This document shows, piece after piece, positions 9,377 to 10,792 of a stretch of 64,000 bases of DNA. Numbering within the stretch: the first letter of the stretch is position 1; the number at the start of each line of letters is the position of its first letter. The notes beneath the pieces are model-generated. The model was not told the DNA's origin. It did no database searches and was given only the letters and a program-made list of their open reading frames with translations. The translations under genes were made by a program, and so were the position numbers. This stretch comes from Escherichia coli O127:H6 str. E2348/69 (GTDB taxonomy: Bacteria; Pseudomonadota; Gammaproteobacteria; Enterobacterales; Enterobacteriaceae). The stretch is from assembly GCF_000026545.1 (NCBI RefSeq), contig NC_011601.1. One strand, written 5' to 3'.

Positions 9377-9742
9377 ACTGCAGAAGGTGGACGACTGGCT
9401 GAGTGCCTTGCTGGCGAATCTGGAGCCAGCCGCAAGAAGCCGCATGATGCGCCAGCTGGCGCAGGAACTGCGCCGGACACAGCAGCAGAACATCAGGATG
9501 CAACGCAATCCTGATGGCAGCAGCTATGAACCGAGGCGAGTAACAGCACGCAGTAAAAAAGGCCGTATCAAACGGCAGATGTTTACAAAACTTCGCACCA
9601 CAAAATACCTGAAAACTGCCGCCAGCGCCGACTCTGCCAGCGTGCAGTTTGAAGGTAAGGTACAGCGCATTGCCCGTGTTCACCATTACGGCTTGCGTGA
9701 TCGCGTCAGCCGTAAGGGGCCACAGATACGTTATGCTAAACG
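9369..9742 (+). pseudogene. S: tail completion protein S (P2 gpS-like), 3' end disrupted at the inversion junction
   Basis: GTG start at 9369; S-like sequence runs for ~122 codons, then the open frame continues to 10157 as antisense of the tail-fibre gene. Confidence 0.6.
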
Positions 9743-10792
9743 TAGGTATGTGAGAAGACCAGTTACATCCTTTCCACTCAAATTAGTCAGCGTATTGTCC
9801 AGCGGTTGTTTACCTGCCAGTGCATTAAGCATTGTCGTGGCAAAGTTCGGGTCATTCCCCAGCGCCGCCGCCAGTTCGTTCAGTGTATCCAGTGCCGCAG
9901 GTGCAGAACCCACCATTGCCGCAATCGCCGATTTCACAAATGCCGTGGTGGCAATTTGTGTATTGTTGACCGACTGTGCCGCAGTAGGTGCGGTTGGCGT
10001 TCCGGTGAGTGCCGGACTCGACAGCGGCGCTTTCAGTGCCAGCGCATTGTTAATGGTGGTACTGAATTTCGGATCATTGTTAATGGCTGCGGCTATTTCT
10101 TTCAGCGTGTCCAGCGTGGCTGGCGCACCATTAATAAGAGCCGTCAGAGCCGCCTGAACAAACTCGGTGGTCGCAATCTGCGTGGTGTTATTCCCTGCTG
10201 CTGGCGTTGGCGCTTTGGGTGTCCCGGTAAACGTCGGACTTTCTTTGGGTACATACTGTGAATGCGGGTCCGGTGCGGCAAGATGTTTTGCCATCTGATC
10301 ATCCGCGTACACCTTCAGCTCCAGTGCCTTGTCATCCACATACTTGCGGGTTGCTAGCACTACAGCAGGGTCGATTTTCAGGGTGATATTGTCCGTGCTG
10401 CTGGTAATCAGCACCATGCGCACGGTCTGAGTGCGCCCGCTACCTTCAGCCAGTTGCGGCTTATAGCTTTCCGGGCAGTTGCCCACGGCAATCAATGCCC
10501 CGGACTCATCAAACAAGCCCACTTCACGTATCCACCAACCGCCCTCGTTTTCAGGAATCACCTGTTCGGCAATAATCTGACTGCTGTTCTGCGGGTCGAT
10601 ATAGAGCATATTCAGCGCAGCCCGGCGTTTCTCATTTACCAGTGCAGTCTGCTTTGAGTCTGGCGTTGGCAATACTCCGCCGCCATCGCCGACCGCCATA
10701 TGGGTAATTTTTAGCGGCACACCGAGCGCGGCGGCGCTGGCAAGTTTCGCCGCGCCAATATCCGTCAGCAGGGTATAAAATTTTGTGCTCAT
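9731..10792 (-). CDS. H: tail fibre protein H, N-terminal (proximal) part only, ends at the inverted repeat
   Basis: 353 aa, N-terminus MSTKFYTLLTDIGAAKLA...MAVGDGGG like P2 gpH, contains NNTQIATTAFV fibre repeats; no distal receptor-binding region. Confidence 0.8.
   Translation of the reverse strand: MSTKFYTLLTDIGAAKLASAAALGVPLKITHMAVGDGGGVLPTPDSKQTALVNEKRRAALNMLYIDPQNSSQIIAEQVIPENEGGWWIREVGLFDESGALIAVGNCPESYKPQLAEGSGRTQTVRMVLITSSTDNITLKIDPAVVLATRKYVDDKALELKVYADDQMAKHLAAPDPHSQYVPKESPTFTGTPKAPTPAAGNNTTQIATTEFVQAALTALINGAPATLDTLKEIAAAINNDPKFSTTINNALALKAPLSSPALTGTPTAPTAAQSVNNTQIATTAFVKSAIAAMVGSAPAALDTLNELAAALGNDPNFATTMLNALAGKQPLDNTLTNLSGKDVTGLLTYLRLA
9737..9747. repeat. left inverted repeat TAAACGTAGGT, candidate invertase crossover site
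   Basis: Exact reverse complement of 14499-14509; sits at the S/H junction; central AAAC..GGT resembles hix/gix-type cores. Confidence 0.45.

Follow-up and report, generated by a model that had tools for sequence, protein, structure and literature searches.

Small serine DNA invertases such as Gin, Hin and Cin cut both of their crossover sites at the central dinucleotide and swap the half-sites, and wild-type invertases of the Gin family strongly favour inversion. Recombination at secondary crossover sites (quasi-sites) was reportedly described for P1 Cin by Iida and Hiestand-Nauer in 1986 and 1987. The Cin quasi-site papers are cited (refs 50-51) in PMC4134206, where a 26-bp, 12+2+12 layout and consensus is given for the crossover sites of Mu, P1, e14, p15B and the EC958 prophages. 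The tail-fibre switches of the Gin/Cin/Pin/Min type (Mu G, P1 C, e14 P and those of the P2-like prophages of EC958; PMC4134206) share with the locus described here the invertase and the 26-bp 12+2+12 sites; in the locus the invertase lies next to FI, and a crossover site lies inside H at YLGLG. The locus differs from them in that the cassette is gone, a 4.8-kb block lies between the sites, and half of each site comes from gene S.

The canonical gene order R, S, reverse-strand moron, V, W, J, I, H, G is common to P2 (where orf30 occupies the moron position), the prophage of NCTC11121 and phage Cartapus. In the NCTC11121 prophage and in Cartapus, G is followed by a mirror-image G'/Hv', then by a Gin-like invertase and then by FI. 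P2 has no invertase, unlike the prophage described here. The prophages of NCTC11121 (hereafter the sister), EC16 and AR_0013 share with the latter the prophage family, the Hc sequence, the crossover site in H (siteL) and the invertase.

The stretch of DNA analyzed (the window, 64,000 nucleotides) was 100% identical to three assemblies of the enteropathogenic E. coli O127:H6 E2348/69, its position 1 being position 864001 of NZ_LT827011.1. It holds the late region (Q ... D, ogr; window 1074-22423) of a P2/186-like prophage inserted between rcdA and ybjL, whose early region (int, CI, CII, A) immediately precedes the window. Across the whole prophage S was the only gene with a RefSeq pseudogene flag. 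The minus strand carries H', I, J, W and V; the plus strand carries R, S', the moron, the invertase and FI. The features of the locus are as follows:

9369..9746, plus strand: S', the first 126 of the 148 codons of tail-completion gene S (homology, RefSeq)
9731..9756, no strand: hybrid crossover site A, TTATGCTAAACG TA GGTATGTGAGAA
9731..10792, minus strand: H', first 350 aa (constant N-terminal part) of tail fibre H, then 3 foreign codons (ORF, homology)
10789..11394, minus strand: gene I, tail protein I (RefSeq annotation; inside the inverted block)
11387..12295, minus strand: gene J, baseplate (RefSeq annotation; inside the inverted block)
12282..12641, minus strand: gene W, gp25-like baseplate wedge (RefSeq annotation; inside the inverted block)
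12638..13216, minus strand: gene V, baseplate spike, first gene of the V-W-J-I-H operon (RefSeq; inverted block)
13262..13279, no strand: TGT-N12-ACA element, putative Ogr/Delta-type activator site of late promoter PV (position)
13299..14453, plus strand: AT-rich moron of 384 aa, at the S/V hotspot that corresponds to the P2 orf30 position
14431..14499, minus strand: detached 3' end of S, codons 127-148 (LLGIYDTDFDIIEEIIINFLIR) and stop, overlapping the 3' end of the moron
14490..14515, no strand: hybrid crossover site B, TTCCAAGTAACC TA CGTTTATGAAAA
14571..15137, plus strand: Gin/Cin/Pin-family serine DNA invertase, apparently intact (homology)
15280..16452, plus strand: FI, tail sheath gene (RefSeq; right flank, original orientation)

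The sister prophage aligned to the window as three pieces: i) the left flank, to 9747, forward; ii) 9738-14509 (H', I, J, W, V and the moron), reversed and 99.9% identical; iii) 14498 onward, forward and 99.9% identical. The pieces overlapped by 10-12 bp, at the site cores, and both breakpoints fell at the central dinucleotide of 26-bp crossover sites. About 2 kb of the sister (Hv-G-G'-Hv', ~4050-5994 of its locus, L001) had no counterpart in the window; the invertible segment with its alternative fibre C-termini and chaperones is absent. When the sister was rebuilt in silico, by inverting it from the S core to the L core, deleting from the L core to the R core and placing TA at both cores, the product matched the window over 14,803 bp with 0 gaps and 98.98% identity. 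Thus the block is bounded by two precise breakpoints, a hybrid site stands at each, and the cassette has been lost. Very probably, the cassette loss and the inversion of the 4.8-kb block arose through a Gin-family invertase acting at siteL, siteR and a quasi-site in S. Among 5,426 complete E. coli genomes, junctions A and B occurred only in the three E2348/69 assemblies, and these genomes held no intermediate with junction A alone, with junction B alone or with a deletion between siteL and siteR in the E2348/69 lineage; the search for the latter turned up an independent deletion in EC16.

The sister carries siteL in H (TTCTCACATACC TT GGTTTGGGAGAA), siteR beside the invertase (TTCTCCCAAACC AA CGTTTATGAAAA) and a look-alike inside S (TTATGCTAAACG TA GGTTACTTGGAA), all three of which fit the 12+2+12 layout. 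Site A of the window joins the left S half-site, through a TA core, to the reverse-complemented H-side (left) half of siteL; site B, also through a TA core, joins the reverse-complemented right S half-site to the invertase-side (right) half of siteR. The two sites are in inverted orientation, 26 bp long and TA-cored, each with one genuine and one S-derived half. Scored with a half-site matrix (a crude one, built from four genuine half-sites of one and the same locus), the S look-alike ranked third of 16,747 positions in the sister locus, behind siteL and siteR only, with 12.7 bits vs 7.6 for the next-best position; sites A and B were the two best of the ~64,000 window positions, site A being the top-scoring 26-mer. 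The exact inverted core common to sites A and B is 11 bp, a pair missing from our repeat listing, which started at 12 bp; by our own estimate ~5 such repeats are expected by chance in 6.4 kb. Since this core is not significant alone, the case is built on comparison with relatives.

The enzyme encoded beside site B has 188 aa and an N-terminal catalytic serine (MLIGYVRVSTNDQ...). Its residues 1-184 matched the Mu Gin structures 3uj3 and 4m6f (E 1e-93), it matched PHROG 125 (DNA invertase), and its accession, WP_000905023.1, is the same as in the intact NCTC11121 prophage.

In the ancestor, the layout would have been R-S-[moron, reverse strand]-V-W-J-I-H-G, then G'-Hv', then invertase-FI, and the Gin-family invertase would have flipped the ~2-kb cassette to exchange the fibre tip and its chaperone. 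In the proposed accidents, a genuine crossover site would have recombined with the S quasi-site (TTATGCTAAACG TA GGTTACTTGGAA) to give an inversion, and a deletion would have removed the Hv-G-G'-Hv' cassette. Two routes can be envisaged: an S x L inversion followed by deletion from the new hybrid site to siteR, or an S x R inversion followed by deletion from the new hybrid site to siteL; either order of inversion and deletion would be compatible with the evidence. The outcome would be a junction of S' (126 aa) with the 3' end of H' (350 aa and 3 codons), a V-W-J-I-H' operon and moron that are misoriented, and a 3' end of S stranded beside the invertase. A single-step origin from two sites was rejected, as two sites cannot yield inversion and deletion simultaneously; at least two events, or one three-site accident, are therefore required.

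Given the preference of the Gin family for inversion, a deletion is less expected here than an inversion. Both junctions carry a TA core derived from the quasi-site; TA equals its reverse complement, so that a site with this core has no polarity and is one mismatch away from AA or TT either way; such a core would have let inversion-type and deletion-type joins both ligate. We infer that an invertase caused the rearrangement, either the resident enzyme or another Gin-type enzyme of the strain in trans. Action in trans is conceivable because E2348/69 has at least three other actively flipping Gin-type loci (PMC4272514).

As in the Cin quasi-site events, a genuine site would have been joined to a look-alike that differs in its core, with hybrid sites and rearranged flanking genes as the result. 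The Cin events were reportedly selected plasmid events, whereas that of E2348/69 is natural and fixed in the chromosome; moreover, the native invertible segment was lost there in addition to the inversion, and the core of the quasi-site is the palindromic TA. It is a natural example of the known quasi-site recombination by a tail-fibre invertase.

Two relatives carry breaks of a similar kind. In the EC16 prophage the cassette was deleted precisely between siteL and siteR with the canonical orientation kept, and H was cut at the same point as H' and joined directly to the invertase flank; the junction, TTCTCACATACC followed immediately by CGTTTATGAAAA (L007, NZ_CP189734.1, 7048-7073), is devoid of the 2-bp core, as might result from trimming of incompatible overhangs ahead of ligation. 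In AR_0013 (L003, NZ_CP032204.1, 2923-7784), both FI and H were split when siteL in H recombined, by inversion, with a weak look-alike in FI (GGCGCGGATGCC CT CGATAATGTCGC), the cassette and the invertase being kept. The S quasi-site was used by E2348/69 only, not by EC16 or AR_0013. Thus invertase-site breakage of H is recurrent in this prophage family, and the three cases suggest that invertase-site scars are a recurrent route of P2-like prophage decay.

Homologous recombination was rejected as the origin of the junctions, at which only 10-12 bp are shared, with the site cores in the middle. Illegitimate recombination at short microhomologies, independent of any invertase and coinciding with the crossover sites by chance, would fit overlaps as short as these 10-12 bp, and the missing core at the EC16 junction suggests end processing over clean ligation. 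This explanation is unlikely, however, for several reasons: i) both genuine sites were used at their exact centres; ii) the 12+2+12 geometry is kept in both hybrid sites; iii) apart from the genuine sites, nothing in the locus resembles a crossover site as closely as the third partner; iv) related prophages break at the same siteL.

Sites A and B are inverted with matching TA cores and lie next to an intact invertase, and flipping the block back in silico restored a 148-aa S identical to that of the sister. The 4.8-kb block might accordingly be a switch still at work, in which the invertase acts on sites A and B to restore and break S alternately. We consider this quite improbable, as all three assemblies show a single orientation; a genome-wide screen for inversions in E2348/69 placed its three flipping prophage loci elsewhere, at 1.89, 2.75 and 2.98 Mb (PMC4272514); one half-site of each hybrid site is poor; and H is truncated either way, with no obvious benefit from flipping. 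Indeed H remained at 352 aa after the in-silico flip, and the fibre defect is therefore irreversible. With one orientation in three assemblies and the locus missing from the screen (PMC4272514), the block appears frozen, and flipping at a low level may occur. There is likewise only a slender chance that a living 4.8-kb switch reversibly uncouples S and the baseplate/fibre operon from late transcription; if it did, the accident would have been co-opted as an on/off control of tail assembly or moron expression. Having lost the cassette, the locus can no longer be classed as a tail-fibre switching system.

Assemblies do get confused by invertible fibre regions (PMC4134206), and an artefact from an actively flipping region was considered. 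It is highly improbable here: the arrangement is identical, at 100% identity, in three separate E2348/69 assemblies, the junctions are unique sequences with no repeats long enough to mislead an assembler, and the cassette is absent from the window, not misplaced.

The rearrangement left H with its constant part only. The first-pass annotation had described the H homologue, of 353 codons, as truncated, with its stop shortly past an inverted-repeat core and with neither a distal fibre domain nor an assembly chaperone in the neighbourhood, and each of these points held when the gene was compared with its relatives. Over residues 1-352 of the NCTC11121 H (500 aa), identity to H' was 99.4%, the two proteins diverging where the sister reads ...GKDVTGLLTYL/GLGEAAKR and the window reads LLTYLRLA-stop. 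On the coding strand H' ends in ...ACA TAC CTA CGT TTA GCA TAA: the TA core of the crossover site (9743-9744) lies within the CTA codon, which is followed by codons for R, L and A and by the stop. The distal receptor-binding module that comes after the YLGLG junction is therefore missing from H', which ends in YLRLA-stop. No distal fibre or chaperone coding was found in the 64-kb window by tblastn with the sister's Hv, Hv', G and G', P2 G and the P2 H C-terminus, the only matches being to the shaft of H' and to a remnant of 21 aa at site B. What lies directly downstream of H' is S' and not the assembly gene G.

The N-terminal part, on the other hand, is well preserved. PF12571 (tail-collar fibre N-terminal, baseplate docking) covered residues 1-150 of H' (1e-64; Pfam), and the shaft region homologous to P2 gpH and relatives is present. 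Against P2 gpH, H' showed 53% identity to residues 1-329 (E 6e-93); the two proteins have in common the N-terminal baseplate-attachment domain and the shaft (53% over ~330 aa), plus a NELAAALGNDPNFATTM...AGKQP stretch. Alignment to P2 gpH and relatives, as the first-pass annotation had proposed, placed the truncation point at about residue 400 of P2 gpH, at the YLGL motif; P2 H runs ~270 residues beyond its own YLGL motif and is followed by G, whereas H' ends 3 codons beyond and has no G. Three tail-fibre PHROG profiles were matched over their first 43-48% only: positions 4-271 of 618 in PHROG 327, 1-306 of 636 in PHROG 6202 and 1-267 of 566 in PHROG 381.

Among the closest 120 database homologues of H', nearly all of which were 97-99% identical over the whole query, 117 had 444-616 aa; the short forms were one 392-aa 'partial' and two of 349 aa, which end in ...GLLTY and are labelled partial. 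The YLxL motif is kept in 106 of the 120 (YLGL in 105 of those) and precedes a further 40-262 residues, which represent 46 different distal modules. The distal regions of these relatives include PF21882 or PF07484 domains, and the full-length H of NCTC11121 has a gp53-like C-terminal domain that H' lacks. Intact relatives that share the 350-aa N-terminal part thus have 40-262 further residues and one or two assembly genes; H has 500 aa in NCTC11121, 473 aa in Cartapus and 669 aa in P2, each followed by an assembly gene. The statement that P2 gpH is roughly twice as long as H' and precedes G refers to the 669-aa P2 protein, but the nearest full-length comparators are of 444-616 aa. Judging by these homologues, ~350-aa fibres of the H' type are not full length, and H' is not a complete fibre of the gpH type, as it has neither tip nor chaperone.

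That the 353-aa H' could be the complete, functional short fibre of a P2-like subtype with no separate tip or chaperone, as the lack of a RefSeq pseudogene flag and the two 349-aa homologues might suggest, is hardly credible at all, since H' matches residues 1-352 of a 500-aa H at 99.4% and parts from it precisely at the crossover core, covers less than half the length of the tail-fibre PHROG profiles, and has 117 of its 120 nearest homologues at 444-616 aa with the 349-aa ones partial and ending at the same motif, and since the classified phage Cartapus has a 473-aa H with a chaperone. Under RefSeq (PGAP), H' is named 'phage tail protein' (WP_000104819.1) and carries no pseudogene flag, unlike S'; an ordinary label of this kind will mislead predictions of prophage completeness and host range.

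The other end of the rearrangement is in S. Its disruption had been recognized in the first-pass annotation, and S proved to be truncated at residue 126 of 148: S' is identical to residues 1-126 of the NCTC11121 S, matched PHROG 26 (tail completion) and is a RefSeq pseudogene with a missing C-terminus. The 22 residues that it lacks align with the conserved LLG...IEEII..L end of P2 gpS. The H truncation and the S disruption, which had been noted without this connection, are two ends of one rearrangement; both genes are broken because of the inversion and the cassette deletion at invertase crossover sites.

The inversion also explains what surrounds H'. The 3' end of H', which is encoded on the minus strand, borders on S' and on neither the moron nor the invertase. 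The space between H and FI does hold the invertase and the AT-rich gene, as earlier described, but I, J, W and V lie there too, since the whole block was inverted. Of the two fates proposed for the distal fibre module, loss or replacement, deletion is borne out by the sister cassette that has no counterpart, and replacement is not. The AT-rich gene as a possible substitute for the fibre module can be discarded: it is the S/V moron at the P2 orf30 position, and it adjoins the invertase only as a result of the inversion.

This moron matched only the uncharacterized PHROG 28299, with no PADLOC match and no credible Pfam match. The moron/S allele junction is carried by ~100 of the 5,426 complete E. 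coli genomes, and only E2348/69 is rearranged. In moron-bearing prophages, S is replaced by AT-rich sequence from about codon 118 (the last ~30 codons), located at 14431-14501 and 9731-9746 in the window and at 10694-10790 in the sister locus (L001). The last 60 nt of S have a GC content of 0.30 with the moron, vs 0.58 in EC16 and AR_0013, whose alleles lack it. The quasi-site sits at the boundary of this replacement, where alleles without the moron read CGTTACGCAGAGCGCCGCCTGCTGGG, which argues that the off-target site arose when the moron was acquired.

According in part to the P2 annotation, genes S, H and G of that phage are essential or required for adsorption. By analogy with P2, the prophage can probably no longer make adsorbing or infective particles; the loss of infectivity put forward in the first-pass annotation is thus supported, following as it does from the need for S, H and G in P2 genetics. 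In trans, the other two P2-like prophages of the strain may complement these defects. No induction data for the P2-like prophage of E2348/69 were found in the literature. The locus is a case of ordinary prophage decay with an unusually clean molecular scar. It leaves the knowledge of invertases and tail fibres unchanged and would not surprise a specialist; its value is that of a base-precise natural case in which a phage's own host-range switch can destroy the phage.

The TGT-N12-ACA element at 13262-13279 lies ~50 nt upstream of V and moves with the inverted block, and its relative position is the same as that of the annotated PV activator site of P2. Transcription of the V-W-J-I-H' operon may therefore persist, now convergent with that of the O operon. 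Copies of TGT-N12-ACA at 3854-3871, 3912-3929, 13262-13279 and 15186-15203 occupy the four places of the P2 Ogr activator sites (PP/PO, PV, PF), an assignment that rests on position, as the number of such elements in the window is not above chance.

Other genes of the prophage lie at places known to vary in P2. A DprA-like gene (window 75-1049, plus strand) is found beside the portal gene, at the P2 tin/old position, and a KAP-family P-loop NTPase is encoded beside the integrase, upstream of the window (NZ_LT827011.1 853585-855102); both are probably accessory cargo at known P2 hotspots. The left flank from O to S' (3737-9747) was 97.6% identical to the NCTC11121 prophage, vs 99.9% for the inverted block and right flank (9738-18539), which indicates a mosaic ancestry of the head/lysis region.
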